Shown here piece after piece: positions 15,283-64,000 of a DNA stretch of 64,000 nucleotides (the stretch's first letter is position 1; every line of letters begins with the position of its first letter). The stretch comes from Geosiphon pyriformis uo1 (taxonomy: Eukaryota; Fungi; Glomeromycota). The position numbers and the translations under genes were made by a program. The notes beneath the pieces are model-generated. The model was given only the letters and a program-made list of their open reading frames with translations, did not search any database and was not told the DNA's origin. The DNA lies in the NCBI GenBank assembly GCA_016748015.1, contig JAAOMT010000429.1, positions 1 to 64,000 of the forward strand, given 5' to 3'.

Positions 15283-17597
<2,315 letters not shown>

Positions 17598-18337: not shown

Positions 18338-18345
18338 ACGCGAAA
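18338..18345 (+). promoter_or_regulatory. ACGCGAAA, candidate E2F/SCB-MCB-type element upstream of the DP gene
   Basis: Matches SCB CRCGAAA and the E2F core TTTCGCG on the other strand, about 845 nt upstream of the DP ATG. A short motif, so chance occurrence is possible. Confidence 0.25.
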
Positions 18346-26341: not shown

Positions 26342-27309
26342 TGTTACCAAAAGTTTTTGGTCTTTTTTCTTAATTGTTGTAATATCAGTTTACTGTTAAT
26401 TCATGATTATTAGAAATAAGTAAATTTCTAATAACTAAATTTATCTTTAAATTATTTCTTATAATTTAAACTGCTGAATTTATAAGTAGAATGACCAATT
26501 CCATACCAGTTACTTTGTAGTAAAAGTTAATTTTTTTCCAGAAATTACTAGTCTAGAAGCTTACTAAAAATATGCAATTATTTTGCTGTAAAAGTTAACT
26601 TTTTTATAGAAATCTTGTCTGTAGACTACCCTAATAATTATAATAAAAAATAAAAATAAAAATAAAAAAAAAGTAAAAGAAATAAAATTTAATTTAAGGG
26701 AATTATTTTTGGTTTAGGCTTAAAAAAACTAATAGTTTACTGAAATTAGTAGCTAATTAATTTCAAAATATTAGTTGAATTTCAAAAAATTTTAAGTGTA
26801 AATAATTTAAGAAATTTGGACTTTCAAAGTATTTAATTTTTATTCATTTTTTTTGTAAAGATATATAAAAGTCAATTAATTTTAATTAAGATAATTCTTA
26901 GTAAGATATATTTTTTTGAAGAGAAAAGCTTTTTTTTATACAACTTGTTATAATACTAGTTTGTAAACTTGAATTTTTTTTTGTTATAATTTTGATAAAC
27001 TAAAAATACATTTTGACAAACCACAAGTTATTTTATTAAGCTATTAACTATTTTAGTAAATTATTTATTATTTTTACAAATTTTTACAAATTTTGGCAAA
27101 TTTTTGAATGTTATATGATTTGATATATTGTGTAATTTAATCATCCTAATTTTTATTGTACAAATTGAATTATTAATTAAATAACAATCTTTGATAATTT
27201 TTGATTAAATAATAAGTAATAATTTGAATAATAATAATATATATTAATTAATAATAAGAATTATAAGATAATTTCATGTTAATTAATGCCTAAAATTTCA
27301 TTGATAACA
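26342..27309 (-). repeat. 3' LTR of Gypsy A
   Basis: TGTTACC...GATAACA; homologous to 49443-50392 and 37821-38787. Confidence 0.9.
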
Positions 27310-27343
27310 TAATTTCTTTCTCAAAACTAAGCTCTGTTGAAAT

Positions 27344-27934
27344 CTAAACACTCTCTATAATATTAAGATAGTGATCCAAAATAATTGAAATAATTTGGTC
27401 TAAAAATTGTTAAAATTTTTATTTTGTAAGTTTGCTAATATATTAAATCTTTATTAATTAAAATATTGGATTTTGTAAGACGTTTTCACAAGTATTGAAT
27501 AAGTTATAGAGTCTAAGAGCTATTTTAAGTTTGCAATAAATGTTTGTTAATTCAGCTGTTGTCTTAAATTTATTGTAAATTTGTTTTTGTATTGTTTTAG
27601 AAATAAGATTGGTTGTTTTAAGATAAAAATATCTAAAAATAGAAGTATATTTATGGTTTTGTTTACTACTCTATAGTTAAAACTTTTGTTGAATTATAAT
27701 ATTTGGTAAAATATCAATAGAGACAAATAAAAATTTTTTTTTTAAAGCTTGTTTCAAAAGTTCTGACAATTAAATTCCAAAAAACTTCTTATGTTTCTTC
27801 TATAAAAATAATAATTCTGAGAATTATTTACTACTGGCATTGTAGTTTTTTTTTGGATGTAATTAATTTGACTTTTATTAATTTATAAATAAATTAAGAA
27901 GTGTTTTTAACACTATCATTAATTTTTGAGACAT
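27344..27934 (-). pseudogene. ORF3 remnant of Gypsy A (unknown function)
   Basis: Lies between integrase and PPT. The C-terminal part KIALRLYNLFNTCENVLQNPIF*LIKI*YISKLTK*KF*QFLDQIISIIL resembles ORF3 of the B elements. Start is approximate. Confidence 0.55.
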
Positions 27935-30900
27935 TTGTTGAATTTTTCAAAAAATAATCATAATAAAAATAATTAAATTAAGATTAAAATTTGAAAAAAA
28001 TTTGAAAAATAAAGAAATATTTTGAATATAAAGTTTTTATATTTTTTTGGTTTTGGGTTTTTCTTGTAATTATTTACTATTTTTGTTTTTATATTTGTGT
28101 ATTATTAAAAGAATATTATAATAATAATAAATTAAATGTTCAGATTTGATTGTTGTTTTATTATAACTATTGGTTTTAAATATCAAGAAATATTTTTGGA
28201 ATTAATTAAAAAGGAATGTATACTAATTTGTGAAATTAATAATTCAAAATTGTTTCTGAAATAATAATGTTTTAATTGATTTCTATGTACAACTTTGACT
28301 AAAATTTTGTTATTAAGTCTTAATTTGTATAATCTATTGCTTAAGATTTTGTAAATATAAAATAGTCTATTCTATTTATGTTCTAATTTTCTATTTTATT
28401 GTTTTTCAGTCTTAGGTTTGTGTAAAAAAACTTTGTTTTTAATTTTAAATTTGTTAGTAACTGGTGGTAATTTGTTGTCATGCCATTTTTTTTGTTGGAC
28501 TTAAGAATATTTAATATGGGTAACTGCTATTTGTTTTTTTTTTCTAATGTACTAAAAAAAGTATAGACTCTTTGTAAAAGTTTTTCTTAGAAGTTTTTTT
28601 TATTGATTGGTTGTACTGAATATGTTTCCATAATAAAATTAATTGGTAATGTTGCTGTTTTTTTATAGATTAAATCAAATAATATGTATTTTGTGATATC
28701 TTGTTTTAGTAGTAATATTAATAAAATAAAGATATTCTATTCTTGTTTAAAATCAGTTAAGATTTTGATTAATAATTTACACAATATTTAATTAAACTGT
28801 TCTATTAATCCATTTATTTAGGAGTAATAAAGTAATAATAAGAGTTTTTTAATATTAAATTGTTTACAAAATTCTTGTATTAAGTTGTTTACAAAGTGTG
28901 TTTTTTGATTTAATAAGAGTTCAATTAAACATTTATGTCTACAAATAATATTTTCATAAATAAAATTTACTACTAATTTTGTATCTGCTTGTTAAATGGC
29001 TTTGGCTTTAAATCATTTGATGAGATAATTTATTGTAATTATGATATAATGATTTTTTTAAGTAATAATAGGTAGTAATTCAATTAAATTAATTTCTACT
29101 TTATTAAAAGATTGTTTAACTTTGATTGAGTTTAAAAATTTAGTAAGGTGAGTTTTTTCTCTTTTTTGACAATTATTATATGATTTTACATATTGTTAAA
29201 TGTTTTTTTACATATGAAACCAAAAATAATGTTTTAAAGTTTTCTAAATTGTATATTTTTTCTTAAATATACTAATAATAAATTTGTATATATTGTTACT
29301 TATAAAAATTAGGAATTATAATAATAGATAAAATAGCCAATCAGAAATAAACATAGTAAAAAAAAATTTTAAGATTCCAGAATTTCAGAATTTCAGAATT
29401 TCTGTCAAAAAAATTAAAGGATTTTAAAAAATCTTGTATAATACAAATTATGTATATATAACAAGAGTATTAGAAACAGAAAAGTATTTATCCGACTTAG
29501 ATAAAACAGTAATTAGTAATAACTATTTATTTTTATATTTTTTTCAAAAGATAGTTTTTATGACTTAAAGCAAAATCATGTTAATATCAATAAAATATTT
29601 TATTATTATCCAATTTATGTTATTATTACTTAATTAAAAATATTAAATCACTTTTCTGTTATTAACAATTTATGTTAATAAACTCTAATACTTAACTATA
29701 TTAAACCAATAGCTCTTAATCACAGCTATTGATAAAATACTAATTTCTTATTTTTTTTTCTTATTTTTTTAATTTTTCTTTTGTTTTATTTCTTTGTTGT
29801 TTACTAATTGATTAAAAAAATTAAGTACTGAGTATTTGACATCAAAAATAGCCTAATAAAATACTTAGAAACAAGGATAGAAATTTAAAAATAGCTTACC
29901 AAAAAGGCATGACTACCAAAATAAACTGGCCACTATGCTAAAAAAAAATTCACAGAAAAAACCATCAATTGAATTTCTGTTCATTATATAAAAAATTCAA
30001 CTAAAACCTTTAGATTTCAAAATTTTCAGAAATTACAGACATTTTTAATTATTAAATATTAAGTTATGGGTTTGTTATTTGTTTTAACATTTCAAATAAT
30101 TACCTATAATATTTGGTACTCCTTATGAAATATAATCTAACAGAAAATTAGCACTAATATCAATTATCCAGAAAAATAGCAGATCAAAAAATCATAGGAG
30201 AAAATCATTTAAGATTTGTAAAATCCTTATTTCAACATTATTAAACTTATCTTGGATTAACAAATAACTATTGGCCAATAGAATCAGCTTTTAACTTCTA
30301 TGTTAATAAAAAAATTAAATTCTATTTAAAAAACCAAGAAGATCTAAAAGTCACTCTTAAGAATTTCTATAGTAAACTATTTTAAAATACTATCCTTCTA
30401 TCAAACTATTTGTTTGTATTACTAATTACAGAAATAAACAAAAAAATTGAAAAATACACACAATAAAGATTTTTTATTATCTTTGCAGACAAAAAAAAAT
30501 TACAAACTTTAACAGAAACACCAAAAAAAACACAATTGTTTACTTAGAAGAAACCAAGAGTTGTTTTACTCATTAACTTATCATATTATCACATATTTAA
30601 AAATACTATTCACATAATATCAGCAGTCATATTTACAGCAGTTGCAAAAACACTATTAGTAAGAATATTATTTTAAAATAATCAAGAAAAAGCCAAATTA
30701 TTAGGAACTTACAATAATTTTTTTGAAGAGTTTAAATTGTGATCAACAATATCATCAAAACTTTAATTACTGCCACTTTAACCAAATTTCGAATTGACCA
30801 GTTATTGAAAAGATACTGAATCAGAAAAAAAAAAAACAATAATTAAAGAAATAATAATTAAAATCCAATCTTAGATAACTCAGAAGTACAAACTTCAATT

Positions 30901-37820: not shown

Positions 37821-38787
37821 TGTTACCAGTGGAATTTTAGCTATTAATTAGCATGAAATTATCTTCATAATTCTTATTATTAAGTAGCATATTATTATCA
37901 TTTCGATTATCACTTATTAATTAGCCAAATTATCAAATATCATTACTTAATCAATAACCCGATTTGTACTATAGAAATTAAGATGATCAAATTACACAAT
38001 ACCCTGAACCATTTAATATAGTCAAAATTCGCCGAAATTAATAGGAAAATCGCCGAAATAATCAATAATTCGTAGAAATAACTTGTAGTTTGCCGAAATG
38101 TATCTTTAGTTCACCCAAATTAAAGAAAAGAGAAAAATGCAATTTCAAAGACTAGTACTACAACAAATTGTATAAAAGAAGAGCTTCTCTCTTCAAGAAA
38201 AATATATCCTTCCCATATCTTACTATAGTAACTTACTTTAGATATCTTAATTGAAACAAATCACCTTTTACACATTTCAAATAAAAATTAAATATTCGAA
38301 AACCAAATCCTTAAATTATTACACTTGAAATTCCCTCAACACAACTAACGTTTTGAAATTGATTAGCTACCAATTTCAATAAACTGTTAGTGACTCCAGG
38401 CCTGGATAGAAAACGTTTCTCTTGCTAGAATTCTATTTCTTTTACATTTCTTTTGTTTTTCTTTTATTGTTATTACAATCATTAGGGTAGCCTACAGACG
38501 AGATTCCTGTAGAAGAGTTGACTTTCACAGCAAAGTAATTACACATTTTAGTGAGCTTCCAGACGAGCAATTTCTAGGAAAGAGTTGACGTTTACTACAA
38601 CATAACTACACAAAGTAACTGGCACGGAATTGGCCATTCCACTTATAAGCCCAGCAGTTCAAATTATAGGAGATAATTTGAAGATAAATTCAGTTATTGG
38701 AGGTTCAACTACTTCTAGAAAACGTGAATTCACAACAAACAAACATTTACAACATTTAAGAAAAGAGACCAAAAACCTCCGGTAACA
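37821..38787 (+). mobile_element. young solo LTR of family A with perfect 4-bp TSD ACAT
   Basis: TGTTACC...GGTAACA 7-bp inverted termini, ACAT at 37817-20 and 38788-91. Inserted in the B1 integrase core; retains many CpGs. Confidence 0.95.
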
Positions 38788-39591
38788 ACATAAATGCCCA
38801 AAAAAATTGTTATTAGATTAAGGAATTTACTTTGTGAACAGAACATTAACAAAATTAAGTCAAAGATTTAAAATTAAGAGACTATTATTATTATTATATT
38901 ATTTACAAACAAATGGCTTAGTTGAAAAATTCAACAGAATATTGTGTAAAATAATAGCCAAAATTAGCCAAAAAAACCAAGATAAATAGAATTTGTTAAT
39001 ATTATTAGTATTATTTGCTTATTAGACAATAAAGCAAGATATTATACAAGCAACATTATTTAAACTAGTCTATAATAGAACAGCAATAATACCAGTTAAG
39101 ATAGATATTAATACATATCCAACTAAACTAATAACAGAAGCCAACTTCCAAGAAACATTACTGAAAAAAACATATAACTTAATAAAAACTTTAGAAAACA
39201 AAAGACAAAGAGCAGTTAATAATATACAAAAGTCATAAACAAAACAAAAAACATAATATTATAACCAATTATCAAATAAACCAATCAAATTTAAGATTAA
39301 AAACAAAGTACTTTTACATTATATTAAAGCAAAAAAACAATAAAATAGAAAATCTAATTCCAAATAAGACAGATTATTTCACATTGAAAAAATTTTTGAA
39401 AATAAATCTTATAAATTAAGATAAGGCAACAAAATCTTAACTAAAGCAACATATAAAGATTAACTAAAATTATAATATAGTATTATTATTTACTAGTAAT
39501 ATTCTACAATTAAGAGTACAATAAATATTAATTCAATTAGATAAAATTTCATAAGATTTAGAACCAATCATAATTATTAACACAAACATGT

Positions 39592-42470
39592 TGTTACTTA
39601 TAGAATATAGAAAGTATATTAGCATATAAATTAGCTAATTAGAAGTAGATGTAATAAATGTAGAATTCCAGGATTCTTTTTAGAAAAATTGCAAGATTTT
39701 AGGAATTTCAGAATTCTCATATGAGGAATTACAGGATTCCAGAATTCCAGAATTTCTCTTAAAAGAATTGCAGGATTTCATGAATTCCAGAATTCCTGGC
39801 TAAAAAATTGAAGAATTCAAGGAATCTTGTACAATGAAATTTATGTATATATAGCAGTAGTATCAGAAGCTAAAAAATTAGACTTCCAAAGTCAGTAGGA
39901 CTCTTAGAGTTAATTAGACTCACAAGTCATAATTATTAGAATTCTCAAGACTTCTTAGTTTAGATTTAATCTAAACAACTTTTTATATCACAAATATTAA
40001 TAAATAAGTATTCACTATCTCAATCTACTTCCCACTATTAACACTTCATGTTGATAGTAATTGATACTTAACCATACTAGAACAATAGCTCTTGATCACA
40101 GCTATTAATAGGATATTAACTTGCAATCATCTTGGTTTATTTTTTTTTATCTTTTTTTTATCTCTTTTATTTTATTTTTTTTGTTGTTGTGTATTAATTG
40201 ATTAAAAAAATTAAAGCACTGAGTTATTGACATTATGGATAGTCTGATAAAAGACCCAGAAATAAGAGTAGAATTATATATATATTAATAGATAGCTTAT
40301 CTGAAAAGCACAACTGTTAGATTAACCCAGCCATTACACTGAAAACAGAAATTGAAAAAACGACTTGAGAAATCAACCAATACCAACCATAATAAATTTC
40401 TGTTCATTATACAAAGAACTCAACCCAAACCTTTAGATACAAACAATTTTCAGAAATCAATATCATTATAGCAATTGAGCACCAGGTTATGGGTTTGTTA
40501 TTTGCTTTGAGATTCCAAATAATCACTTGTAACATTTGGTGCTTCCTGTGAGGTATAATTCTACAGAGAACCAACACCAATTAATAATCATTCAAAAATG
40601 GCAGATCAAGAAAAAATAAGAGAAAATCACTTAGAACTTGCGAAATTTTTATTTTACTATTATTTTTGAAAAACTTGTTAAATTGAAAATTTGATCATTT
40701 AAAACCCAATTGTTAAAACCCTGAACATTTGAAACTTACTTTTGATAAACTTGTTAAAACTTGTTAAAATTAAAACTCCAATTATTTAAGACCCAATCAT
40801 TCAAAAAAAAAAAAAACTTTCCCAAATATTTGAAACTAGATAATTCCAATTCCACTATCATACAAAAAAACTTACTGTCAATAAAACTTGTTAAACTTCT
40901 AGCAATTCAAACTCCAGAAATTAATCAAAAACATGAACATTTGAAGTCTAATAAATTCCAAATCCCACTATCATACAAGAAAATTTACTTTCAATAACCC
41001 AAGAAAACTTAATTCTCACAGTATCAATAAATCAGCAAAACTTATCTGATAGCTCTGAGTCAGAATATTGGAATGTAGTCACAATTCACTTTCATGTATT
41101 ATATATTTGAAAAAGAGCCAATTAGCAAGAACAAATGGAAATTGGAATCGGAACTTAATTCTGATTCAAACTTCACTGATAATGACAATGATTCAAACTC
41201 CACTAATGATAATGACAATTCAAACTCTGCTAACAACAATTTAAACTCTACTTCAAATACCAAACAATATATCACACTTTTAGATCTTACAATGAAGCAG
41301 AAATTAACTAAATTCAGTAATAATAATAAGGGCATTATGTTTAAACATACACATAATACAAATGCAAGATTTGAACATAGATATTCTGAACAAACCACTA
41401 TAATTAAAAACCCCAGTCATGTATAAAATTAGATTTACAAATAACAATAGAAATTACAGCAACAACATTGATACAAAAGAGAGATTTAAAAGATTTTACA
41501 AGAGCTTAATATTAAAAGAGAGAATAATGTTACTTATAGAATATAAGAAATATATTAGCATATAAATTAGCCAATTAGAAGTAGATGTAATAAATGTGGA
41601 ATTCTAGAATTTTTCTCAGAAAAATTGCAAGATTTCAGGAATTTCAGAATTCTCATACAAGGAATTGCAGAATTTTAGAATTCCAGAATTCCTCTCAAAA
41701 GAATTGTAGGATTCTAAGAATTCTAAAATTCTTGGCTAGAAAATTGAAAAATTCAAGGAATCTTGTACAATAAAATTTATGTATATATAGCAGTAGTATC
41801 AGAAGCTAGAAAATTAGACTTCTAAAGTCAATAGAACTCTCAGAATCAATTAGACTCACAAGTCATAATTATTAGAATTCTTGAAATCTCTTAGTTTAGA
41901 TTTAATCTAAGCAATCTTCCATATCACAAATATTAATAAATAAGTATTCACTATCTCAATCCACTTCCCATTATCAACACTTCATGTTAATAGTAATTGA
42001 TACTTAACTATACTAAAACAATAGTTTTTGATCACAGCTATTAATAGAATACTAACTTGTAATCACCTTGGCTTATTTTTTTTTATCTTTTTTTTATCTT
42101 TTTTATTTTTTTTCTTTTGTTGTTGTGTACTAATTGATTAAAAAGATTAAAGTGCTGAGTTATTAACATTATAGATAGCCTGGTAAAAGATCCAGAAATA
42201 AGAGTAGAATTATATATATATTAACAGATAGCTTACTAGAAGGGCATGACTGTTAGATTAATTTGGCCACCACACTGAATACAGAAATTGAAAAAATAAC
42301 TTGAAAAATCAACCAATACCAACCATAGTAAATTTCTGTTCATTATACAAAGAACTCAATCTAAACCTTCAGATACAAACAATCTTTAAAAATCAACATT
42401 ATTATAGCAATTAAGCACCAAGTTATGAGTTTGTTATTTGCTTTGAGATCTCAAATAATCATCTGTAACA
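39592..42470 (+). mobile_element. non-autonomous LTR element (B2): two 943-bp LTRs around a 993-bp mosaic interior
   Basis: LTRs 39592-40534 and 41528-42470, perfect TSD ATGT, PBS TTTGGTGCTTCCTGTGAGG at 40535, purine tract before the 3' LTR. The interior has only a gag start, a repetitive filler and a pol/dUTPase fragment. Confidence 0.92.
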
Positions 42471-43187
42471 ATGTCAAATTAATCTACAAAAACAGTATAT
42501 AAAGAACCAATACATATGACAAAAGCAAATAGAAAGATAAAAATTGCTAACAACATTTATTTACTAACCTAACAATTATTTTAATTGATCAAATATCAAA
42601 AACTAAACATAAAAATCACAATTAATTAACAAACTATTTAATATAAAGACACAGAAAGAAAACAAAAACTTTAATATGAGATATAATATAGAGTATATTG
42701 AAAACATAAAAATATAGTAAAAAATATAATAGCAAAAGTAAAAATATCTATAAAAACACCAAAAACAATAGTACTATATAAGGAGTTAACAAAAAAAAAT
42801 TTGAAATGGTGAACATAACAATTTCTAAGAAACTTTTACTATTATCACTTAGAACAAAAGATCTATATTCAAAACTTATATATAAATAAAACAAGATAGA
42901 TATTTAATATAATAATATTATAACAATTCAAACAATTTGTGAAAAAAAACAATCTATCTATACAGACCCAGGCAATATACCAGTTACAAACAGAATTTTA
43001 AGACTGTTTGGAAATACTGCTTTACTCAACAATGAATACATTAATTATTAATCAATTGGGAAAAATAACCAATGCTCAATTTAAAGAATAATAGACCAAT
43101 ATTGTTCAAATAATTCTTAAAAAAGAAGTTATAGAGCTAATTAAAGAGAAAAATTTAAGAGATTTAAAAAATTTCAACAGAACTTAA
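42471..43187 (+). pseudogene. ORF3 of Gypsy B1 (239 codons, unknown function)
   Basis: ATG-to-TAA in one frame, with in-frame stops attributable to CAA>TAA, CAG>TAG, TGG>TGA/TAG and CGA>TGA. Protein-level match to 62569-63265. Confidence 0.75.
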
Positions 43188-46081
43188 TATTAAAAAGAGA
43201 AAATAATATTACTTATAGAAATTATAATAATAGGTAAAATAGCTAATCAAAAATAAACATAGTAAAAAAAATAATTACAGAATTTCAGAATTCCAAAATT
43301 TCTGTTAAAAAAATTGAAGAATTTCAAGAAATCTTATATAATATAAATTATGTATATATAGCAAAAGTATTAAAAGCAGAAAAGTATTTATTTAACTTAG
43401 ATAGAATAGTAGCTAGCAATAACTACTTACTTCTATCTTTTTTTCAAAAGATAGTTTTTATGATTTAAAGCAGAATTACATCAATATTAATAAAATATCT
43501 TATTATTATTCAATCCATATTATTGTTGTTTGATTAAAAATATTAAATTACTTCTTTGTTATTAACAACTTATGTTAATAAACTTCAATATTTAACTATA
43601 ATAAACTAATAGCTTTTAATTATAGTTATTAATAAAATACTAATTTTTTATTTTTATTTTATTTTATTTTATTTTTTTGTTGTTTATTAATTAATTAAAG
43701 AGATTAAGTACTAAGTATTTGACATCAAAAATAGTCTGAAAAAAACCCTGAGAATAAAGATAAAAATTTAAGAATAACTTACCAAAAAAACATAACTACC
43801 AAAATAAACTGGCTACTATACTAAAAAAAAATTCACAGAAGAAATCATTAATTAAATTTTTGTCTATTATACAAAAAACTCAATCAAAACTTTTAAAAAT
43901 TACAGATATTTTCAGCTATTAAGCAGCAAGTTATGAGTTTGTTATTTGTTTCAACATCTCAAATAATTATTTGTAATAACATATTATAAAAGATATTTTT
44001 TTTCTTATTTTTTTGAATTAATTTGAGTAAATTTGTTAAATTTCTTCAATTTTAATAATAAATTTTATTGTAATATAAAAAATATTGTTTAAATTAGTAT
44101 TGTAATTACTGTTTTTTAATTGAAAACCAGTTTTCTGACATAGTTAGAGTTTTTAAGTAATTTTTAATGTTTTTGTAATTTTCAGGATCCATTGTTTTAT
44201 TAATTGTTGTTTTGTTATTAAGTTGTTGAGTTTTAGATATTAATTTTAATCTTGTTTTATTCTGAAAAGACTATTAATATTTGTGTATAATTTTTTTAGT
44301 TAATAATACACAATATATTTGTAATTGGCTAAAAAATCAGTTCATTAGGATTGCTTTATACTGAGGTTTGAATTTTTTTTATTGAACTATTTAAGTTTAA
44401 TATTATTAGTGATAATGTCAAATTGAAATTTATTTCGAAAATATTGTTAAAAGTATTTAAAAACTCAGATAACAACTGTTGCTTCTAATTTAATTGATCT
44501 ATATTTGAGTTCTATTGACTTGAGTGTTTTACTAGTATATATAATCACTTACTTATTGTTATTGTTATCTAATTGTAATAGAATGGTACCAAAAACTATA
44601 TGTAAAGCATTAATAGTTAACTGAAATTTTTACTAAAATTTAGATAGGCAAGAATTAAAACTGTAGTAAGTTTTTTTTTGATAGTATTAAATATTTATTG
44701 TTAAGTTTATGTTTATTGATATTTCACATCTTTGTTGGTTAAATAATTAAGTGGTTTGGCAATTTCATGAAATTTTTTAATAAATTTTTAGTAATAAGAA
44801 GCTAATCTTATAAATTCTTTTAGTTTTATAATATTTCAAGAGATTTTAAAGTTATTAACAGCACTAATTATTTTTAGATTGGATTAAACTCTATTCTTGC
44901 TAATAATGTGTTCAAGAAAAATCAAACTTGTTTTTCTGAAATAATATTTTTTAATATTTAATTTCAATCTTGTTTTTTATAATTATTGAAAAACTTCTTA
45001 CAGATAAACCAAATAAGCTTTAAAACTTAGAGAGTATATATTAGTGTTATTAAGATAAACAATTATTAATTGCTATAAGAGTTTTTTATAGATAATATTC
45101 ATAAATTTTTGGAATGTTGTTGGTATATTGCAAAGTCTAAAATGCATTATATTGAACTTGTAATTTTTTTTTTGGGTAATAAAAGCTGTTTTGAATCAGT
45201 CTTTAAATTTTATTTTAACTTGTTAGTATTTGCTTTCCAAGTTCAGAGTTGAAAAAAACTTGGGTTTTTTTAGCACATTTAGTATGTTATCAATTCTTAA
45301 TAATAAATAGACATCTCCAACTATAACACTATTTAGTTGATAATAATTTACACAAAATTTGATTTTTTCATTTTTTTTAATAAAAACTACTGGTAAAACC
45401 CAAGAACTTCTTGATAATTGAATCAGTTTGTTGTTAAACATTCTCTAAACTTTTTCTCTAATGAGTTGGTAGCTAATAAATAAAACTTAATAGGCTTGTT
45501 GGCATTTTAATAGAGCATTTTTTGTATGAATTTGATGTTATATAATATTGATTTTTCCTAGATTATTGTTATCTTTGACAAATATATTAGCATATTTAGC
45601 TATTAACTGTTTCAATTGTTTTTGGAATTCTAAAAGATTCATGTTAATTTAAGAAAGTTTTTCTTTTATTATGTGGTAGTTTTTGGTATTCAAAATAATA
45701 TTTGGGTTTGGAAATAGTATATATTTCACAATTTCAATAAAATTAAAGACAGTTTAAAAAGTTTTATTCTGAAAGATATTGCTATGTATAATTTCAATTT
45801 CAATTTATTTAATAAAATAATAAAATAATTGTTAAGATTATAAAATATAACTTGAAATTTCTTTATTTTTTTCAAAATATAAATGTTTAGAATTAAAATT
45901 TGTGTTTTAAACAAATTTATTCATTTGATTCGAAGATTTGTTAAGAGATAATTAGTTTTGGACAAGTGTAAATTTCATAATGTTCTCCAAAAAATAATAT
46001 AGTAATTAGTTATAAAAGTCAAAGAATCTAATAAAATTTATTCTTTATATTAAAAGCTATATTTACTGAAATTGTAAATCA

Positions 46082-50392: not shown

Positions 50393-50775
50393 TTATATTT
50401 AGTTTTCAAAACAACTATTTTATGTTTTAACTTATTAACTGTTTTATTAAAAGTATCTATATATACCAAAATTTTATTAATCTTAAAACCAAGTGTATTA
50501 CTTAAAACCAAATTATCATTAGTAAATTGTTTAAACACAATAATTAAAAATCTAACTGGCTTAATAATAAACTTAATCAGAACAAAAAACTTGGCCAAAT
50601 CAGATTTCAAAAAAGTCAATTGAGAAAAAATTGCAAAAACATCAGCCAACATATTAATAAGAAAAACAAAACCAACTAGAAGACTAAAAACCAAAAAAAA
50701 ACACAAAAACAGCAGTTTTAACATAAAACTTAATATTATTATCCAATAGAAATTAACAAAAATCAAAAATAATAA
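50393..50775 (-). mobile_element. upstream part of the second ORF1-only element
   Basis: The ORF 50362-50766 translation (LKSDLAKFFVLIKFIIKPVRFL...KIVVLKTKY) is homologous to ORF 2000-2593 (LKFDLAKLSTLVKSIIKFVGRL...KVVILKIEY) and joins 26341 in frame once Gypsy A and one TSD copy are removed. Confidence 0.85.
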
Positions 50776-50779
50776 TATT

Positions 50780-53700
50780 ATAATATATTAATCAATTATT
50801 AAATAATAGTATAAATATTACAAATTAATGAATAAAATTAGAAAATATAATATGTACACAATAGCATGCAAAATATGCACAAACACACCTAATTTAATAT
50901 AATTACAAACAAGTAAGCCAAAAAACACTTACAGTTAAATAAAAAGTCTAATAACTTAGCAATTATTTATTAATCAGTTAGAATAAACATAATTATATAT
51001 AACTTAAAATATATATATATATGATAGTCTTTTAACTAAAAAAAAGAACAGACAAGAAAAAAAAAGAATAAAAAACAAAAAATCAATTAAATAAAATAAA
51101 AACGAAAAAAAAGTGGAAAAATTAGATTATAATCTCAAAAAAAACTAGACAGTATGTCTTTCAAGCTTTGTATTATTTACTAATATTAAGATTAGTAAAA
51201 TTAGAAACTTTTTTTTTATAATTCAGTCTTTTACAAACAACCAAAAAGACTATTATTCTCTTTCTTCTACTATTATTTTTTCATTAAGAAAAAACAATAA
51301 TGGAAACATCTGATATGTCAACAAAAGTACAAACAAAACCCAAGCTTAACAAAATTGAAAACACATTAAAAAAATATTAAATACATAAAATTACCTATAA
51401 AATATTTGTAATACTTTGACCAAAATCAACAGTTAATTTAAAAATCCAAAATAAGTTCTCTATATCTTTAAAAAAATAATTTCTAATTAAGATTATTTTA
51501 TAAATACTAATTTTGTTAAATTCTACTTTTTATTTTAATCTTTTTTGAATTTATTAAGAATAGGGTACCACTTTACTATAAGCAAAAAAATACAGATATT
51601 TAATATTAGTGCAAAATAAAAAAGAGTGTTTCTGTGAAAACTTCAAAAAAAAACATAATTAAAAGTATAGAAATATAATAAAAATTCTCCTTGGAAGACT
51701 AGTATAGCAGTGACTACCAACAACAATTTTAATAGAAACATTATACTATACACTAAATTTAAAAAAAAGACACTTATCTAATATCTGTTAAAAAATTATG
51801 AAAACTTACCAAATTAATCTTCAGATTCTTAAATAAGAGAATAGTAATAATATATTAAATGACAATTTTACATAAATTAAAAGTAACACTAATTGAGACT
51901 AATATATTTATTTCTATATTAAAATTAGATAATTTACTATATTATTACTTAATTTTAAAAACTGTAAAAATTAATCATAATACAACCACTAAAAAAAAAG
52001 AAAAAATTTACATAAAATTTAGTGTTTATTTCAAGATTCAATTTTAAACTATTTAAGCCACTTAAATTTTAACAATTAATTGCATAAATTAGTAAATTAA
52101 AATAACAGAATTAGCAATAATTATTAATTCTTTTAGCCAAAACTTATATTATTAATTTTAAAAAAATTGGAATTATCTGATAATTGTTCTCTAACTGAAT
52201 CAATTTTTAATTACTATGTGTACTATTAAATTTAATACTTACTTGAACAAGATTCAGAATTCCAAAAACAAAAACAAAGCTTATATTAATAATTAATTTA
52301 TCATATCATACTATTCAATACACAATTATTTTCAATAACTCTGGTACAAATATACCAAGAAATCAAGGAATACATCTAAGAAAGTTTTCCATTTATCTTT
52401 AATAAAAACAAAAAAAATAACAGTAATCAAGATAATCAGCTAAAAATCCCAATACAAACACCTCATTAAAAAATTGTGTGTCAACAATAAACTCTAATTC
52501 TATTATAAAAAAACCTTGAGTCATATTACCAGAAACTCTATTTTACTATTTGTTACTGGATAACCAAATTAATATACTACTAAGAACTATGTTCTTATTT
52601 ACCACAAAAACAATTTTTCAAACCCTTAACTATGTTTATATCTTATTTAAAAGAAAATTCTTTAAAAAATTTATTCTAGAAAGATACTTATTATGATTTT
52701 TAAACACTTCTTTTACAATCAAACTTTTAGACTACTTGAAAATTTAAGCCTAAACTCAAACCAGAACCTGAATTTAAATATAACCAAAAAAACAGAATAC
52801 CAAAAAAAATTCTTAAGTGAATCAGAACTAAAATTCATAGTTTTTTTTGTTCAAATATCTGTAAATTTTCAAAAAATAGCTGTCTTCTATATTGCAAAAT
52901 TGACTAACTTTACTGGAGAAAAAGAAGATGTTCATATTTAGATTAAAGAAACACAAAAAGCAATTCTAGCAAATAATTAAAATAAAGTTTGTAATTTTCA
53001 AACCTTATCATTTTTTTGAAAAACACAGTTAACTCCTAATATCAGAATTTAGATTTTAAACTTGACATTTTTACATGGTTTTAAAACATATTCCTAAAAT
53101 ATTTCTGCAATCTCAACATTATTATCAAACTTCAAAATAGATTTAGTAGTTTTAATCATGTTTTATAACAAATTAAAGCTATAGAAAACTACTATTATAC
53201 AGCTTTTCAGATTTTTAATCAGTTTGTAAAAAATTAAAGAGTAGTATCTTAAAATAAGTAAAACCACAATACCTGAAAAATTTATTCCAAGCTGTTATAT
53301 TGGCTTAAGATATTAAGTCAGCTGAAAAAAAAGCTAATTACAATAAAATAATAAACTTGGTAATAAATAACAGTAATACCAAAAAACTAAAAGACAAAAT
53401 TATTCAACTTAAGAAAAAATTATCTTAAAAAATGGAAATTTATCTTGCTAATACCAGACTCTAAGTACCAAACCAATATTAATCATCACAACAATAAAAT
53501 TAAACATTTTTTTAAGACTGTAACTATTAAAACTCAAATAAAAACTAACAAAATATATTAATATGTTATAATTGTCAAAAACATAGACATATTAAAGCCA
53601 AATACTGATTATTGCAGTCTTATTAAAATTTGTAAAGAAACAATTTGTGGAACTTATTTTTCAACAATCAATACATAATACTCTAGAACTAATATTTAAT

Positions 53701-56390
53701 ACTAATTTAACAGTATTCTCAGCAATGATTATTATAACAATAAAATCTAATCTGGTCACAATGCTTAGTTTTATCACAACAATCATAACAAACACCAACT
53801 TTCAGACCACATTTTTAGAACTTAAATTAAAGAAAAAATTATTTACTCTCAAATTCAAACTTCTTAAATCAGCCAGCAACAAATACAATAATACTACAAA
53901 ACCTAAGTCTAAATAATAATAAACAATACAATACATCTATATATTATTAGCAAGCATTTTTTATTTTATTTGAACTACAGAATTTTTATAATATGACATT
54001 TCACAAAGATTAAAATATTAACACTATTAAAAGCTCTATTGTTAATACCAGTAAAAGTACCAGCATGATTTTTCTTATAACTATTACTAATAACAAAACA
54101 TTAGCTGTTATATTTTCTTTTAAACTTGAGAAAAAAAAATTCATCTTTATTTTGTTTAATAAAACCACTTTATATGAAAATAAACTAATCACCACAATGT
54201 AAATTAAAATGAAAACAGATAATAAATTCATTAAACTAGTTTTAAATAGCAAATTAACAAAAAGTATTATTACTCTTCAATTAATAAACCAATTAGATTA
54301 TTAAATTAACAGAAACACCAATACTCTTATTATTACTGCTGACAGAACTAAAAAAATGCTAATTAGAAAAATTAACTTCTTTTTCTTCAACATAAATAGA
54401 ATAATTATTCTTATTAAAGTATTAGTTATGAATACAACTTAATATCAAGCACTAGTTAGAAATAATTAATTAGAAAAAATAAATGCCATTTTGGATTGGT
54501 TGACTCAAGAGTTACAACTAATATATTAGAAACAATACACATAAGTATTTATTATGTGTAGATATTTTAAAAAAAATTTCTACACAAACAATCCACTTCA
54601 GTCTAAATTTGAAAAAACATTAAAAATAAAAGCCATTAAAGCATATTAGATTAAGTAAAATGAAGACAATCATAAAAAACTACCACTTGGTTTTGAGTAA
54701 ACTAATAAAACCTTTAACTTTATACTATTACACTTTTTTTGATCCCAATATTATCAAAGTTATTGACCAAAATTACAATGTTTAATTTGCCAAAAAAAAC
54801 TATCTTCTATAATGACTTATGTTATTCTATACAAAAATAACCAACAGATCATTTACTACTATAATAACTGATGTTACAAAAAAACATATAAATATTTAAA
54901 ACAATTAAGAAAATAAGACAAAACTCTTTGTATCTTATGTAAAAAAATTTTATCTAATAAATACAACTAGATTGATATGCAATTTAGAAAGGCCACATAT
55001 AATTTCACTTGTCAATATACTGTTTTTATTACCAACTGGATAAAAAAAAAATTTTTTTTAATACTGCTTATAATAGAATTCTAAATTACATATATTATTA
55101 CCTATATAATACCAAACAACTATATAATATAACTAAAGCAAGTGTACAAGACAAAATGACCAAAAAAATTCAAAATTAGAAAGTACTGGCAAAAGTTATC
55201 AAAGAAATTATTAAATACAACTCTTTAGATTTTTTACAAGAATTTTAAGATTACTATTAAGAACTTTGCTTAACATGAAAAAAACAGGAATAATACTTTG
55301 TACAAATAAATACTTATTTATATAAAAACTGCTTAATTTCTTGTTAATTATAATAGTGTTTTAACTGTTAGCTTCAGTTTGAATTATTTAAAGAAACAGC
55401 TCAATTTGGAAATTATTCAGACTATAAAGCAAGAAATGTAATTTCATAAACATTAAAAATATTATTAGACAACTTGTATATCTTTATTAATTTTCAACAA
55501 AAATTGAACATTAAATATTTTATTGACAGCAACTAAGAAATTTTTTCAGAATAAACACATCTAACTAATGTTAAATTTGATCTCTAATATCTTAAAAACC
55601 AAACATTAAAGTTAAAACCATTTACTATTATCACAATTAATTTAAAATTAATATTTAAAATACCAACCAGAATCATAGTACAAATAGCTTCTCAATTTAG
55701 TTTAGTCAGAAAAAAAATTAATATCAAAAGAAAAATTATAGACTTTAAACACATAAAAAATTTTATAGTCCTATTATACAATAAATCAAACTGATCATAT
55801 TTAATTAAACCAAAAAAAAATTACACATGTAATTATTTTATCTTTACTTCAAATTATCAAATTAATTACTATTGAAACCTAAAAAAAGCTGGAAAAAACC
55901 AAATGCAGAATTCAAAGTCTTGGTTCTAAAAAAACAGTCACATTACCTATTGACTATATAGAAACAATACAAAAAAACTTCGACATAATTTGAATTAATT
56001 AAATAATTACAATCTTATTATTTAGAACATATTTATTTAATACATACAAAAAAACAACAGAAAAAAATCTTTTATTCAAATTATATGCTCTTTTTTGTAA
56101 ACAATTTTTAATTAGTTTTATTGATTTGTATATACTATGCTATAATTATTTGTAAATAAAAATACCTATTTACAACTTATTTAAAAAAACTATATACTTA
56201 TCTAAAAATATAGTCTTAAAATATCTAAATACAGATATTGTTAATTAATATAAACTTCAAAAAATCTTTGACTTTTTTTAGTTGGTATTATATTGTAAAA
56301 CTAAATTAATTCTGTCAAGACCAAATACTGAATGCTACTAAATAACTAGTGAAAAGTTAATTAAGCTTAATCTTGGATTATTAGACTTAT
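50780..56390 (+). mobile_element. Ty3/Gypsy family E, 5' portion, heavily decayed
   Basis: Gag (IAKLTNFTGEKED, knuckle CYNCQKHRHIKAKY about 53565-53606), protease about 54200-54550, Cys-rich region about 54750-55380, dUTPase about 55555-55930. Cut at 56390 by a B-type LTR. LTR boundaries not resolved. Confidence 0.75.
55555..55930 (+). pseudogene. dUTPase domain in Gypsy E pol
   Basis: HLTNVKFDL, VQIASQFSLV and KRKIIDFKH are eroded motifs 1-3, at the same position as in families A and B. Confidence 0.65.
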
Positions 56391-57701
56391 TATTATTTAT
56401 AGAAATAGAAATAATTATAAGTAAAAAAAATAGTCATTCAAAAAAAAGTATAGTAAATAAAAAAATTCTGGAATTTTTTTCAAAAAATTGCAAGATTCCA
56501 GAATTTTAGAATTCTTCTTAAGAAATTACAAGATTTCAGAATTCCAGAATTTTTTTAAAAAAATTGAAGAATTTTAAAAAATTTTATATAACATAAATTA
56601 TGTATATATAGTAAAAGTATTAAAAACAGAAAAGTATTTAATTCAGTTCAGAATTTAAAACAGTTAAAGATAAGTAATTATTCAATACTTTTTTCTTTAA
56701 AAGATAATTTTCTATAATTTGAAATAAAATTATACTAATATTAATAAAATTATCTATTATTATCTAATCCATGTTACCATTATTTGATTAAAAAATATTA
56801 ATTAATTTTACATTATTAACACTTCATATTAATAGAAACTAATACTTAATTATATTAAACTAATAACTCTTAATCATAACTATTAACAAAATACTAATTT
56901 TTTATTTTTTATTTTTATTTTTTTTTATTTTTTTTGTCTGTTTTTTTGGTTGTTTACTAATTGATTAAAAAATTAAGTACTGAGTATTTAATATTAATAA
57001 ATCAGTCATCATGTTAAAAAAAAATTCATGAAAAAAATTATCAATTAAATCTCTGTCTGTTATACAAAAAACTTAATCAAAATCTTCAGAAATCACTATT
57101 ATTAATTACTATTGAACACCAAGTTACAAGTTTGTTATTTGTTTAATACTCTAAATAATTACTTGTAATATTTGATGCTCTTTGTAAAATATAATTTAAC
57201 AGAAAACCAGCACTAATATTAACTATTTGGAAAAATAGCAGACTAAGAAATAATAAAAGAAAATCATTTAATATTTGCAAATTTCTTATTTTAATATTAC
57301 TAAACTTACTTTAAATTAACAAATAATTATTGGCCAACAGAATCAGTTCTTAATTTTTACATAAATAAAAAGATTATATACTATTTGAAAGGCCAAAAAA
57401 ATTCAAAAACTGCCATCAAAAACTTTTACAGTGAGCTACTACAACATACTAATTTCCCATAAAATTATGATTTTGTTACAATAATTATAAAGATAAATTG
57501 CAAAATCAAAAATTATACCAAACAAAAATTTCTCATCACTTTTACTAACAAAAAAAAGAGAAGTTACAAATCATAGCAGAATCTTGAAGAAAGTATAACC
57601 ACCTACTTAAAAGAAATTAAGAATTGTTTTATCCATTAATTCATTATATTATTACACATCTAAAAGCACCATCTAAATAATATTAACAGTTATGTTTATA
57701 T
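56391..57701 (+). mobile_element. Gypsy B-type element (B4): 5' LTR 56391-57170, PBS and gag start; interrupted
   Basis: LTR homologous to 29294-30111; TTTGATGCTC PBS remnant at 57171; gag 5' region homologous to 30130-30640. Confidence 0.85.
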
Positions 57702-60700
57702 TGTTACTTATAGAATATAAAAAGTATTTAGCATATAAATTAGCCAATCAGAAGTAATCATAGTAAATGTAGAATTTTAGAATTCCTCTCAAAAAAATTG
57801 CAGAATTCCAGGAATTTTAAGATTCTCATACAAAGAATCGCAGGATTCCAGAATTTTAGGATTCCTTTCAAAAAAATTGCAGGATTCCTGGTGTGAAAAA
57901 TTGAGGAATTGAGAAATCTCAATTATGTATATATAGCAGTAGTGTTAGAAGTAGAAAAGGAAGACCTTGAAGTTTAAACTTGATCTAAACAACCTTCTAA
58001 CTTACAAATATTAATAAATAATTATTTTTTATTTCAAATCTACTCTCTACTATCAACATAAAGTGTTGATAGTAATTAATACTTAATCACACTGGAACAA
58101 TAGTTCTTGATTATGGCTATTGACATAATACTAATTATTATTGTCTTGGCTTATTTTTTGTTTTTTGTTTCTTTTATTTTTATTTCTTTTCTTTTGTTGT
58201 TATTTACTAATTGATTAAAAAATTAAAGTGCTAAAATACAGATGTCATAGAGACTGGTAAAAGACCTGTGAAACAAAGGTAAAACACTTATAGATTTGAG
58301 GATAACTTACCAGGAGGATTACTGGTTACCACACTGAGAAAGAAATTCGATGAAATTGCGATTTTGGGAGGCTACTGAAACAACTATTGAATTTCTGTCT
58401 ATTATACAAAAAACTTAACCAAAACCTTCAGATTACAGAAACCTTTAAATACCAATGCCAATATATTAATTGAGCACCAAGTTACAGGTTTGTTATTTGC
58501 TTTGAGAACCCAAATAATTACTTGTAACATTTGGTGCTCCTTATGAGGTATAATCCTACAGAGAATCAGCATCATCAACAATTATCATAAAGTGACAGAA
58601 CCAGAAATCATAGAGACAAACCATTTAGAATTTGCCAAATTTTTATTTCAACAGTACAGCCAATAATTGGGCTTAACCAACAACTATTATTCAACAGAAT
58701 TAGTCTTCAACTTTTACATCAATAAGAGAATCACAGATTTTCTAGAAAGACCAGTTGACATTGAATTAGCAAGAGAAAATTTTTATACAGAATTAATCTA
58801 ATACACTAGCTTACGACGGAATTACAGTTTTATACTAATTATTAGAAAAATTAATCAAGAAATCAAAGATACACTCAACAACAATTTCCTATTACCTACA
58901 CAAATAAGAATAAAGAAAAATTACAAACATCAGCAGTAACACTAAAAAGAATACAACTACCAACATAAAAGAAACAAAGAATTGAATTTCTACTATATCT
59001 ATTATACTATCACACACCTGATAGTATCATCAACATTATATCAACAGACATGTTTACATTAAATACAACATCAATATTTGGACAACTCTTATTTCAAAGT
59101 GAACAAAAGAAAATAGAATTATTAAGAACTTACGGCAATTACTTTGAAGGTTTTAAATCACAATCCTCAATGCCATCAAGATTCTGATCATTGCCACCTC
59201 AACCAGACTTTGGAACTACAAGTTTCTGGGAAATAATGGCATCAAAAGAAGAGGAAGAAGAGGATCAAAAATTTAATTATCAAAATCTGATTACAGAAAA
59301 TCCAGAAATTGAAACTCCGAACTTTCAAACTCCTCAAAATTTGAACAATACAAACTCCAAAACAATTAATCAGCAAAACTTATCTTCAGTAATTGTCATC
59401 AATCAACCACCAATTGAACTGATTATTGAACCAATTTAGCAGCAGCCATTTCAACCACTTCAACCACCCCGACAACCACAACAGCCATTTCAACAGCCAC
59501 AACAACAACTTCAACAACCAAACTTAGATCTAATGGTCTATGCTTCAATAGCAAAACTTGAGAAATTTATTAGCAAAGAAGACAATGCTCAAATATGACT
59601 AAATGACATTGAAAAAGCCATAGATAGAACAATGCAAAAGCCCTCCAAGCCATCCCCTATTTCTTACAGGATACTGCCAACTTGTGGTATCAAAGTTTAA
59701 CCACCAAACCTTAAACATTCCAAGAATTTAAAGTTGCATTCTTGGAATATTTTAGTAATAATAACAGTATTAATCACCTGGCCAACACTTTCATCACAAT
59801 CAAACAAAGAGAAACTAAAGCAGTTACCTAGGATGTTTTCACAGAAACTTGCGCCAAATTCAAGCAATTCAAGCTGACTAAACCAGTTCATCTGTAGACT
59901 ACACAGTAGCATCCTCCAATGCATATGCCCAATGCACTCACAAACTCTCCAAGATGCAGTTATTAATGTACAAGATTTTGAATCCACTGAACTTGAAGCT
60001 AACCATGCTCAAGCCATCAATCTAATAATAAACAGATTATCTGAATGGGACTTTAAGCTGAAACAATTCAGTGATTTCATTGACAAAAAATTAAAAGGGT
60101 ACTTAGCTAACAATCAGGCAGTTTATCAACCTCCACAACAACATAATAATCAGGGAAACATAAATTATTTCCAGAATCAGTTGTGTCCTTCATCCTCAGC
60201 CAATCAATAATGGCAGCAGGAGATGTGTGTTTGCCACTACTGTAGTAAATAAAGACATTTAAGAATTGACTACAGGTCAAGAATAGATAACCAACAATCG
60301 GGAAATCAATATTGAAACTCTGATTACTGGTTCCCAACTCTGAATTATCATGCAAACTCAGCTCCATATTAACTGACTTACCTGCCAATGATGCAGCAAC
60401 CAATCTATCAAACATCTGTATATTAACTTCTAATTTATTAACCACAGCCACAAGTACTATATCAACCACACCCACTAGTAAGTTATCAATCTCAGCAACT
60501 TCAAAAATCACCACCAAACCCAGCTCAGATGACATCAGAGAATCTCAGATCAAAAATCACTCAAAACTGGAGATCAATAATAGTTGTCCACCAACTGATC
60601 CCCAGTTTATCAAACCAATCATCAGGATTCCAACAGCAGAGTTTAGGAACCGGATATACTCAAAACCCAAGTTTTCAGAACTATTTAAGCCTTTTAGTTA

Positions 60701-61699: not shown

Positions 61700-64000
61700 T
61701 GTTACAAGTGATTATTTGGGGTTTCAAATCAAATAACAAATCTGTAACTTGGTGCTTGGTTAATATGTAGGGTTAATATCTGAAGGTGTGTTTTCTGAAA
61801 ATTTTGGTATGGAATCCTTTGTATAATAGACAGAGAGTTAATTAATGGTTTTATCCATAACTTCCTAAAATCACAGTTTTGTCAAATTTTTTTTTCAGCA
61901 TGGTCGCTGGTAATCTTCCTGGTAAGCTATCTTCAACTCTATAAGTGTTCTACCCTTGTTTCACAGGTCTTTTACCAGTCCCTATAATGTCTGTATTTCA
62001 GTGCTTAATCCTTAATCAATTTAGTAAAACCAAAGAAATAACAAAGAAATAAAAAAAAATAAAAGAAAATAAAGAACAAGTAAAAGCAATTGCAAATTAG
62101 TATCTCATCAATAGCTATGATCAAGAGCTATTGTTCTAGTATAATTAAGTATCACTTACTATCAACATGAAGTGTTGATAGTAAAGAGTGGATTTGAAAT
62201 AAAGAATAATTATTTATTAATATTTGTGAATTGGAAGGTTGCTTAAATGAAATTTAAACTAAAAGGTCTTTAGCTAAAAAATTCTGTTCCTTTCTGTTTC
62301 TAATACTACTGTTATATATACATAATTGAGATTCCTCAATTTCTCAATTTTTTACATCTGGAATCCTGCAATTTTTTTTGAGAAAAATCCTGGGATTCTG
62401 GAATTCTGTGATTCTTTTATACAAGAATCCTGAAATTCCTGGAATCCTGCAATTCTTTTTGAGAAAAATCCTGGAATTTTACATTTACTATGGCTACTTC
62501 TAATTGGCTAATTTATATGCTAATATACTTCTTATATTTTATGAGTAATATTATTCTCTTTTTTAATATTAAGCTTCATCGAGATCTCCCAAATCTCTTA
62601 ACTCTAATTTTCTGTCATTGAGTATTTCTTGAACTTCTTTTTCGAGAATTGCTTGAGTTATTTTGTTCTGTAATTCTTCAAATTAGGTGTTAGTTATTTT
62701 TTCTATTTGGTTAACTGTAATGGAGTTCATCTCTGGATTAAGTAAAATTTCTGGTTTGTCTTGAAATTCAGTATGCAATCAATAGATAACTCTTGCTTGT
62801 GTTGTTAGATTGTTTTTTCTCACAAATTGTTCCAGTTGTTACAGTATGGTTGTGTCGAATAATCATTTTGTTTTATCTGTGTATAAGTTTTAAATATTCA
62901 AGTGTCGTCCCAAGTGAAAATAACAAAAGTTCTTTGGAAATTTGTGTATCCACCATTTCCAAGTTTTTTTAGTCAACTCTTGATATACATTGATACTTAT
63001 TGGTTTTTCTATTGCTAATTTTATTTTCAACACCATTTTGTTGATAGTGTTTTCTGTTTTCTTTTAACTTTTGTATTTGGGTCTCTTTTTAGTATCTCGG
63101 TATCAAATGGTTTGTTGATTAATAGTAATTTCCATATTCTGTTGTTAAATCAGTTGGAAAAGTTGTTGTGCTAGTGAGTAAATGTTGTCAGTGATTTCCA
63201 TTTTTCTAAAGTTTTTTGTCACATCTGTCATGTTTTTATATACCTTTTTTATTGTTTAATTTTATGTGTTTGGTCCAATGATTATGATTGGTTCCAGATC
63301 TCATAAAATCTCATCTGGTTGAACTAGTATTCTTTGTACTCTCAATTGTGAAATGTTATTGGTAGATGGTGACACTATATAGTGATATGATTTTAGTCAA
63401 TCACTATGTGCTGCTTTGGCTAAGATTTTGTTGTCTCATCTTAATTTATAAGCTTCATTTCCAAGAATTTTTTTAATGTAAAATGGTCCATTCCATTTGG
63501 GGTCAAATTTTCCACTCCATTGTTTTTCTACTTTAGTATGATATAGAAGTACTTTGTCTCTAATTCTGAATTCAACTGGTTTATCTGATAGTTGGTTATT
63601 ATGTTTTTCTTTTTGTTTTTTTTGTGACTTGTGTATATTATCAGCTGCTTTTCACCATTTGTTTTTTAGTGTTTCCATCAAGTCATATGTTCTTCTTAGC
63701 AATGTTTCCTGCAAATTGTTCTCAGTTATTGGTTCTGTTGGATAAGTGTTAACTTCTATTTCTACTGGTAATGTTGCTGTTCTATCATATACTAATTCAA
63801 ATAGTATTGCTTGTGTAGTGTCTTGCTTCATTGTCTGATAAGTAAACAATACTGATAATATAAACAAATCTAATTTGTCCTGGTTTTTTTGACTGATTTT
63901 GGCAATTGTTTCACACAATATTCTGTTAAAAACTTTCAACTAACCCATTTGTTTGTGGATGGTATGATAATGATAATGGTCTTTTTATTTCAAATCTTTG
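61700..64000 (-). mobile_element. Gypsy B-type element (B5), 3' portion: integrase, ORF3, PPT, 3' LTR 61700-62550; runs off the window
   Basis: Integrase C-half (HPQTNGLVKVFNRILCETIAK...WNGPFYI), ORF3 63265-62569, AAAAAAGAGAATAA purine tract, LTR homologous to 57702-58529. Confidence 0.92.
62569..63265 (-). pseudogene. ORF3 of Gypsy B5 (about 230 codons, unknown function)
   Basis: VYKNMTDVTKNFRKMEITDNIYSLAQQLFQLI...YQELTKKTWKWWIHKFPKNFCYFHLGRHLNI*NLYTDKTK*LFDTTIL*QLEQFVRKNNLTTQARVIY*LHTEFQDKPEILLNPEMNSITVNQIEKITNT*FEELQNKITQAILEKEVQ...; homologous to 42471-43187. Confidence 0.8.

Follow-up and report, generated by a model that had tools for sequence, protein, structure and literature searches.

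The Third Frame of Nested LTR Elements

The window analysed here is a stretch of 64,000 nucleotides (nt) from contig JAAOMT010000429.1 of the glomeromycotan fungus Geosiphon pyriformis uo1 (assembly GCA_016748015.1, positions 1 to 64,000), the right half of which is made up, according to self-BLAST, of nested and decayed long terminal repeat (LTR) elements. Three of these elements, designated A, B1, and B5, harbor between the integrase and the 3' LTR a further open reading frame (ORF), referred to below as ORF3. The DNA is AT-rich (GC 12–36% across 2-kb blocks). Element B1 is inserted within the integrase of element A, and B5 is truncated by the window end, its 5' end lying beyond it. The features under consideration are as follows.

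Element B5
63256..64000, minus strand: C-terminal part of the integrase, in the same frame as ORF3; SH3_Tf2-1, E 8.8e-4
62563..63231, minus strand: ORF3, 222 codons, ATG at 63231 to TAA at 62565-62563
62551..62564, minus strand: polypurine tract (PPT), immediately 3' of the ORF3 stop
61700..62550, minus strand: 3' LTR, terminating in TGTAACA

Element B1
38786..39591, plus strand: C-terminal part of the integrase, separated from ORF3 by a nested insertion
39592..42470, plus strand: nested B-type element, internally deleted, between the B1 integrase and ORF3
42516..43193, plus strand: ORF3, 15 internal stops, no frameshift
43207..43978, plus strand: 3' LTR, 81% to its 5' LTR at ~29294-30111

Element A
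5' LTR at ~49450-50412 to 3' LTR at 26342-27309, minus strand: the whole element
28159..29243, minus strand: integrase, with a ~190-nt spacer to ORF3
27290..27961, minus strand: ORF3, more decayed; the frame crosses the PPT and enters the LTR by ~20 nt
26342..27309, minus strand: 3' LTR, 83% to the 5' LTR

The host elements possess paired LTRs with TG...CA ends, a PPT, and a short target duplication (seen for B1, A, and the nested insertion). The pol order of reverse transcriptase (RT), RNase H, and integrase was established with Pfam on L001, the contig encoding the metagenome ORF3 relative P0223, and the L001 proteins map onto B1 and A in the same order. By these features of their sequence, the elements are Ty3/Gypsy LTR retrotransposons. 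Judging from the arrangement of frames, ORF3 forms an ORF of its own, in sense orientation, after pol and before the 3' LTR in the three window copies and in L001, and we are nearly certain that it represents a real third gene of the element.

Decay of the ORF3 Copies

The B5 frame contains no frameshift and nine internal stops vs. 10–19 in each of the other five frames; since every one of them (9/9) coincides with a column where the homologues have Q or R, each is explicable by C>T change. The second ATG of this copy, at 63201, marks the start of homology with the other lineages. B1 and B5 are 45.7% identical over 219 aligned residues (tblastn, E 8e-52), hence the original prediction, made from the sequence alone, rightly saw a third frame matching at the protein level after both integrases. 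Twelve of the 15 B1 stops are opposite columns with Q, R, or W (including that at codon 64, where the column majority is K and the minority R), two fall within an insertion, and one is opposite L. The A copy, invisible both to tblastn with B5 and to a hidden Markov model (HMM) of the B family only, is matched by an HMM of seven lineages (see below) at 27961-27314 with an independent E-value of 4.7e-32, the best reversed-window control being 0.42; across the window, no further match below E 0.4 accompanies the three ORF3 copies that this HMM retrieves. Comparison of the A profile with the B profile gave an alignment of 185 columns with 21% identity (E 1.7e-6, probability 89.9%).

Stop counts fail to single out the ORF3 frame in B1 (15 vs. 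14–29) and in A (14 vs. 16–23), and, by their sequence, all three window copies are dead. The attribution of the internal stops to C>T/G>A change in the original prediction is sustained for B5 and for most of B1, but the A copy additionally suffered an out-of-frame stretch near codons 26–62 and an 11-codon deletion. Certain bounds proposed there also had to be moved: the B5 frame was correctly recognized, but its supposed end at 62569 is a decayed Q codon, the true stop lying two codons further and abutting the PPT, and the divergent A version does exist, but extends past the proposed 27934-27344 on both sides.

Purifying Selection on the Frame

The twin LTRs of the nested element (39592-40534 vs. 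41528-42470) display 105 differences, of which 101 are transitions, in CT, CA, and CC contexts; C>T decay is strong and extends beyond any single dinucleotide. Because the copies decay by transitions, selection was assessed on transversions. Over 198 codons of B5 and B1 ORF3, these comprised 23.7 per 144 synonymous and 52.3 per 1044 non-synonymous sites, i.e., a ratio of non-synonymous to synonymous proportions (pN/pS) of 0.30 (Fisher p 2.6e-6), the proportions being uncorrected, from a single pair, and from a protein-guided alignment which favours the coding frame. The integrase of the same pair yielded 0.26 (p 0.0035), and the non-ORF3 frames 0.81, 2.10, 0.92, 0.46, and 1.54, where 0.46 belongs to the antisense frame sharing third positions. 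For ORF3 transitions, the ratio was 0.74, matching the expectation after neutral decay. A plain DNA alignment, containing gaps that are not multiples of three, distributed the transversions as 28/17/34 by codon position (third vs. second, p 0.024). On these counts, ORF3 was under purifying selection in the past; the dN/dS near 1 that the original prediction would have taken as contrary evidence was not observed.

Between B5 and B1, ORF3 is ~2.5–3x more diverged than the integrase at synonymous and non-synonymous transversion sites alike (ORF3 62572-63222 vs. 42516-43184; integrase 63400-63945 vs. 38915-39466), a pattern that may stem from recombination of subfamilies at the border between the two genes.

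Homologues and Distribution

In three length-limited homologue searches, G. pyriformis gene models accounted for 85/85, 64/64 (query from family A), and 47/48 matches; many of the 64 A-family homologues are 221–244 residues long. An HMM search of 1.84 billion representatives, free of the length limit, returned 93 matches; the 20 looked up comprised 16 from G. pyriformis, two intact metagenome relatives, and two repeat-rich false matches. The metagenome relatives are P0206 (234 aa) and P0223 (230 aa, with its member P0232), while P0225 and P0228 were dropped as repeat-rich false matches. A broad HMM matches 264 of the 266 fetched proteins, and 51/266 align without interruption to 170 or more of its 212 positions, although these are predicted gene models, some of which may bypass stops through false introns. 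Many members are therefore near full length, rather than broken by indels as the original prediction had allowed for.

Seven lineages of ORF3 can be distinguished, five from G. pyriformis (the A, B, P0172, P0180, and P0174 types) and two from metagenomes, with 21–43% pairwise identity; the underlying tree of 25 rows, where long branches meet, was used for lineage counting only. Contig L001 encodes RT-RNase H and integrase; 316 nt further on, in a different frame, lies an intact ORF3, itself followed by a PPT and an LTR. P0206 ends in a PPT/LTR-encoded motif seen also in family A and L001. Since the spliced models P0146, P0184, P0186, and P0256 join pieces of the integrase tail to pieces of ORF3, ORF3 can be placed downstream of the integrase for families A and B and for the P0180 lineage. 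By sequence comparison, ORF3 copies are numerous and show the kind of conservation seen in other genes of the element, and the accessory ORF kept across families, as originally proposed, is corroborated by both selection and homology.

The element lineage is likely that of Geosiphon and related fungi. A first metagenome scan revealed no relative, and none was found in the viral contigs, phages, or plasmids searched. In the ESM Atlas, 24 of the 30 matches of P0090 belonged to unnamed clusters, of which the two displayed were eukaryotic, with Mucoromycota the commonest; this hints at a wider spread.

These data bear on the idea that ORF3 arose by chance in conserved non-coding DNA, or is a captured fragment of a host gene without a role in the element. 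The final 25–30 nt before the PPT are indeed conserved as DNA with frames differing in A and B, and the expression of ORF3 is putative. However, selection is specific to the ORF3 frame, length and motifs are retained across the seven divergent lineages, ORF3 of L001 is intact although the integrase of the same contig already carries a stop, and the window holds no match outside the three elements; hence, we consider such an accident very improbable.

The stretch of ~25–30 nt before the PPT (core GAGCT) is shared by A, B, and L001, and likely represents a cis-acting signal. It was located as follows.

62565-62590, minus strand: B5
27320-27345, minus strand: A
41480-41527, plus strand: nested B-type element
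3085-3116: L001

The resemblance of the A-family end 'DFNRA.F' to the B C-terminus is one of DNA; a match between the proteins was rejected, since intact A proteins use another frame there.

Border with the Integrase

A point absent from the original prediction is that family-B ORF3 is in frame with the integrase across a single shared stop. In B5, the two are separated by TAA at 63264-63262 (TCA in B1) and TAA at 63258-63256, and only the latter has a counterpart in B1 (TAA 42480-42482). The ORF3 N-terminus is covered by 100 proteins, of which 98 extend it by at most nine residues, and the leaders of the other two are not integrase; no gene model in this set joins the integrase to the ORF3 N-terminus. 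Three of the underlying searches had a length limit and the fourth had none; the stop is thus likely ancestral. Given the shared stop in B5 and B1 and the different frame and spacer in L001, ORF3 does not appear to be a continuous C-terminal domain of the integrase, a possibility left standing by the original prediction. By analogy with SIRE1, read-through of the shared stop in family B is possible.

This arrangement could signify that ORF3 is an integration cofactor. In B5 and B1, integrase and ORF3 share one frame with one common TAA, and the spacer is without frame-breaking indels; Pfam searches found no chromodomain on the integrase tail, only SH3_Tf2-1, so the targeting module could be elsewhere; and the third ORF of SIRE1 is described as expressed through stop suppression (PMC2829016). 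Against this stand the frames and 316-nt distance in L001, the ~190-nt spacer of A, the near absence of long leaders, and the overlap of the conserved spacer codons with a TATA-like box, which together leave the cofactor role rather unlikely.

The spacers before ORF3 in A (27975-28010, minus strand) and L001 (2290-2320) share TTCAAATTTT(T)AATCTT, which may be due to chance in AT-rich DNA. Upstream, at 772-801 of L001, RNase H closes with an in-frame stop, and the integrase opens as a distinct ORF, its Met following after a few codons; a stop and a Met occur at the matching place in B1 (37220-37260, plus strand), where the stop could be due to decay. Pol may be split in this lineage, in which case production of the integrase would require a separate message or read-through.

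Predicted Protein

The ORF3 proteins are 210–240 residues long, with 0–2 cysteines and no conserved D, E, H, or C residue. Modelling predicts a soluble, helical protein. Its small N-domain would consist of a helix plus a hairpin, the linker that follows (residues 36–57) would be basic and disordered with a possible nuclear signal, and in the C-domain (82–221), helices 126–141 and 146–160 would be joined by a conserved GKTN turn; conserved basic and polar residues gather at this predicted helix-turn-helix. With the B-only alignment as input, AlphaFold reached a pLDDT of 38.7 and was uninformative.

No membrane helix was found among 11 proteins by hydropathy (maximum 1.29 over 19 residues, ≤0.63 in the B family), no dedicated signal-peptide predictor having been run. 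An Env-like or fusion protein, for which position alone argues, is largely refuted by this hydropathy profile, the scarcity of cysteines, and the soluble helical model, and is scarcely tenable; the original prediction of a soluble, helical protein distinct from classical Env agrees with these results.

Searches for a characterised family, which the original prediction had also envisaged, gave no match at threshold in Pfam, PDB, Foldseek, PHROGs, or NCBIfam. Foldseek returned nothing at E ≤ 0.001 against PDB and viral models, the ESM Atlas nothing usable for P0003, and PHROGs and NCBIfam scattered weak matches without a consistent family. An importin-5 HEAT-repeat match from the PDB sequence search was rejected, as its E rose from 0.005 to 0.23 with a broader profile. 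For the DUF1016_N/ParB-type helix-turn-helix, the best Pfam E was 0.012, under the curated cut-off; HHalign to DUF1016_N (PF17761) gave a weak motif alignment in the expected register (P 0.0056), and superposition a weak structural overlap (residues 78–207), while HHalign to a YhcG-seeded set, Raf1_HTH, DUF3102, and ParB HTH was negative.

The closterovirus coat protein attained an Atlas feature score of 0.92. A role in packaging the element's RNA or carrying it from nucleus to nucleus in the coenocytic hypha, as an RNA-binding or particle protein, is nevertheless unlikely: the recognition value of 2100 is under the threshold, the 150 shared features are under the same-family level, and the coat protein is absent from the Pfam matches and the top 50 viral Foldseek rows.

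Possible Function: A Regulator of the Element's Own LTR

A DNA-binding regulator is favoured since the protein is small, soluble, and devoid of catalytic residues, with basic and polar residues kept at the predicted helix-turn-helix. According to the predicted fold, the helix-turn-helix-like C-domain would bind the element's own DNA and control its transcription, the targets being family-specific repeats in the U3 region of the LTR, on which the protein may act as an activator, repressor, or anti-silencing factor. That ORF3 binds and regulates its own LTR is possible rather than probable. The LTRs of the B family contain a 40-nt tandem repeat in U3, and L001 has different short repeats. Of nucleic-acid binding, one of the functions originally suggested, the evidence is weakly supportive. 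The protein would be made from its own short transcript, as the 316-nt AT-rich spacer of L001 and the motif before the B copies suggest.

62358..62478, minus strand: 40-nt tandem repeat in three units, within U3 of the B5 LTR and preceding the TATA-like box of that LTR; candidate binding sites
63235..63242, minus strand: TATATAAA in B5, lying 41 nt 5' of the second start codon; candidate internal promoter
42496-42503, plus strand: TATATAAA in B1, at the same spacing

The distance of exactly 41 nt in both B copies leads to the start codon where cross-family homology begins. Still, the motif is a weak lead for an internal promoter, the DNA being AT-rich and the copies related.

Alternatively, ORF3 may counteract host silencing, whether by methylation or by the small-RNA machinery, through binding to proteins and not to DNA. 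Fast divergence around a conserved hydrophobic core without catalytic residues, the heavy C>T decay of the copies, and the methylation of transposable elements reported for Rhizophagus (10.1101/2021.03.30.436303) are in line with it; however, no similarity to known suppressor families was found, and the conserved basic and polar residues sit at the predicted helix-turn-helix, making this role quite unlikely.

Returning to the DNA-binding regulator, the anti-silencing VANC proteins of Arabidopsis VANDAL elements may serve as its functional analogue. They diverge between families whose non-coding DNA has family-specific tandem repeats, and their targets are often tandem repeats differing between related elements (PMC5735166). 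At the same time, VANDAL is a plant DNA transposon, and the analogy would be a functional one, drawn from the presence of the LTR repeats. A bolder version, in which a fungal LTR lineage captured a bacterial-type (DUF1016_N/ParB-like) helix-turn-helix protein, now a family-specific trans-activator or anti-silencing factor on its own LTR repeats, seems improbable. The motif alignment and overlap with DUF1016_N and ParB-type domains are weak and below all thresholds, those families are bacterial, and ORF3 has no attached nuclease or ParB CTPase domain. If such a capture took place, a fungal retrotransposon would possess a counterpart of VANC or of the retroviral transactivators, and the LTR expansion filling 41% of the G. 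pyriformis genome may have been its result.

Relation to Known Extra ORFs

For the interval between pol and the 3' LTR, the literature describes additional ORFs in sense orientation from plants and insects and in antisense from plants and Botrytis (PMC7264820, PMC8365987). The sense class aORF-3S (the env-like ORFs of Athila, Bagy2, and SIRE1; PMC7264820) resembles ORF3 in position, orientation, copy number, conservation, and a possible internal promoter or stop suppression, but ORF3 has a fungal host, no transmembrane helix, and no sequence or fold match to catalogued families. The genes brtn of Boty (Botrytis, Sclerotinia) and gene23 of maize Grande occupy the same interval of gypsy elements, brtn being the fungal precedent and gene23 a nuclear protein with its own promoter; both are antisense, whereas ORF3 is sense, the comparison covering position and orientation (PMC7264820, PMC8365987). 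In view of Boty, the original prediction went too far in allowing fungal Ty3/Gypsy elements normally no genes but gag and pol. The ORF3s of bdelloid rotifer LTR elements are likewise small (210–230 aa in some clades), family-specific, and not canonical Env, but include GDSL esterases, DEDDy exonucleases, and coiled-coil or membrane proteins, whereas the Geosiphon ORF3 lacks catalytic residues and a membrane helix (PMC5408684).

A term search of a fungus-wide LTR survey (PMC3248453) retrieved no mention of 'ORF3', and full-text literature searches no description of the family, although Repbase, Dfam, and the supplements of the G. pyriformis genome paper, outside their reach, may annotate the ORF. 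By sequence, ORF3 constitutes a new protein family, not described before, at a position already known from the architecture of other elements. Most additional ORFs of LTR retrotransposons lack an assigned function, and the sole fungal case found in the literature is antisense; ORF3 offers a defined, selected, and foldable family within the dominant repeat class of G. pyriformis, where LTR sequence is given as 41.2% of the genome (PMC11952901). The existence of intact natural members renders DNA binding and regulation directly testable, and the annotation of well over 100 G. pyriformis 'hypothetical proteins' can be changed to retrotransposon ORF3, so that they no longer count as orphan genes of the host. 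If ORF3 counters silencing, it would help to explain the LTR overrun of some arbuscular mycorrhizal lineages.

Other Features of the Window

The nested B-type element (39592-42470, plus strand) is a 2.9-kb, non-autonomous unit with ~1 kb of internal sequence, which landed exactly in the short integrase–ORF3 spacer of a related element. Its LTRs (39592-40534 and ~41528-42470) are 89% identical and flanked by the 4-nt duplication ATGT; before its PPT, only the final 50 nt of the region remain. A primer-binding-site-like stretch, TTTGGTGCTCC.., is common to B-type elements after their 5' LTRs (30112-30130, 40535-40555, and 58530-58550).

A further decayed element at 50420-57170 (plus strand) has gag-like frames and an LTR at ~56388-57170; the seven-lineage HMM found no ORF3 match before this LTR, so ORF3 may have been deleted or never carried. 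At 15725-22139 (plus strand), an island of host genes, GC-richer and flanked by repeats, contains open frames which we take to resemble 6-phosphofructo-2-kinase and an E2F/DP-type factor.
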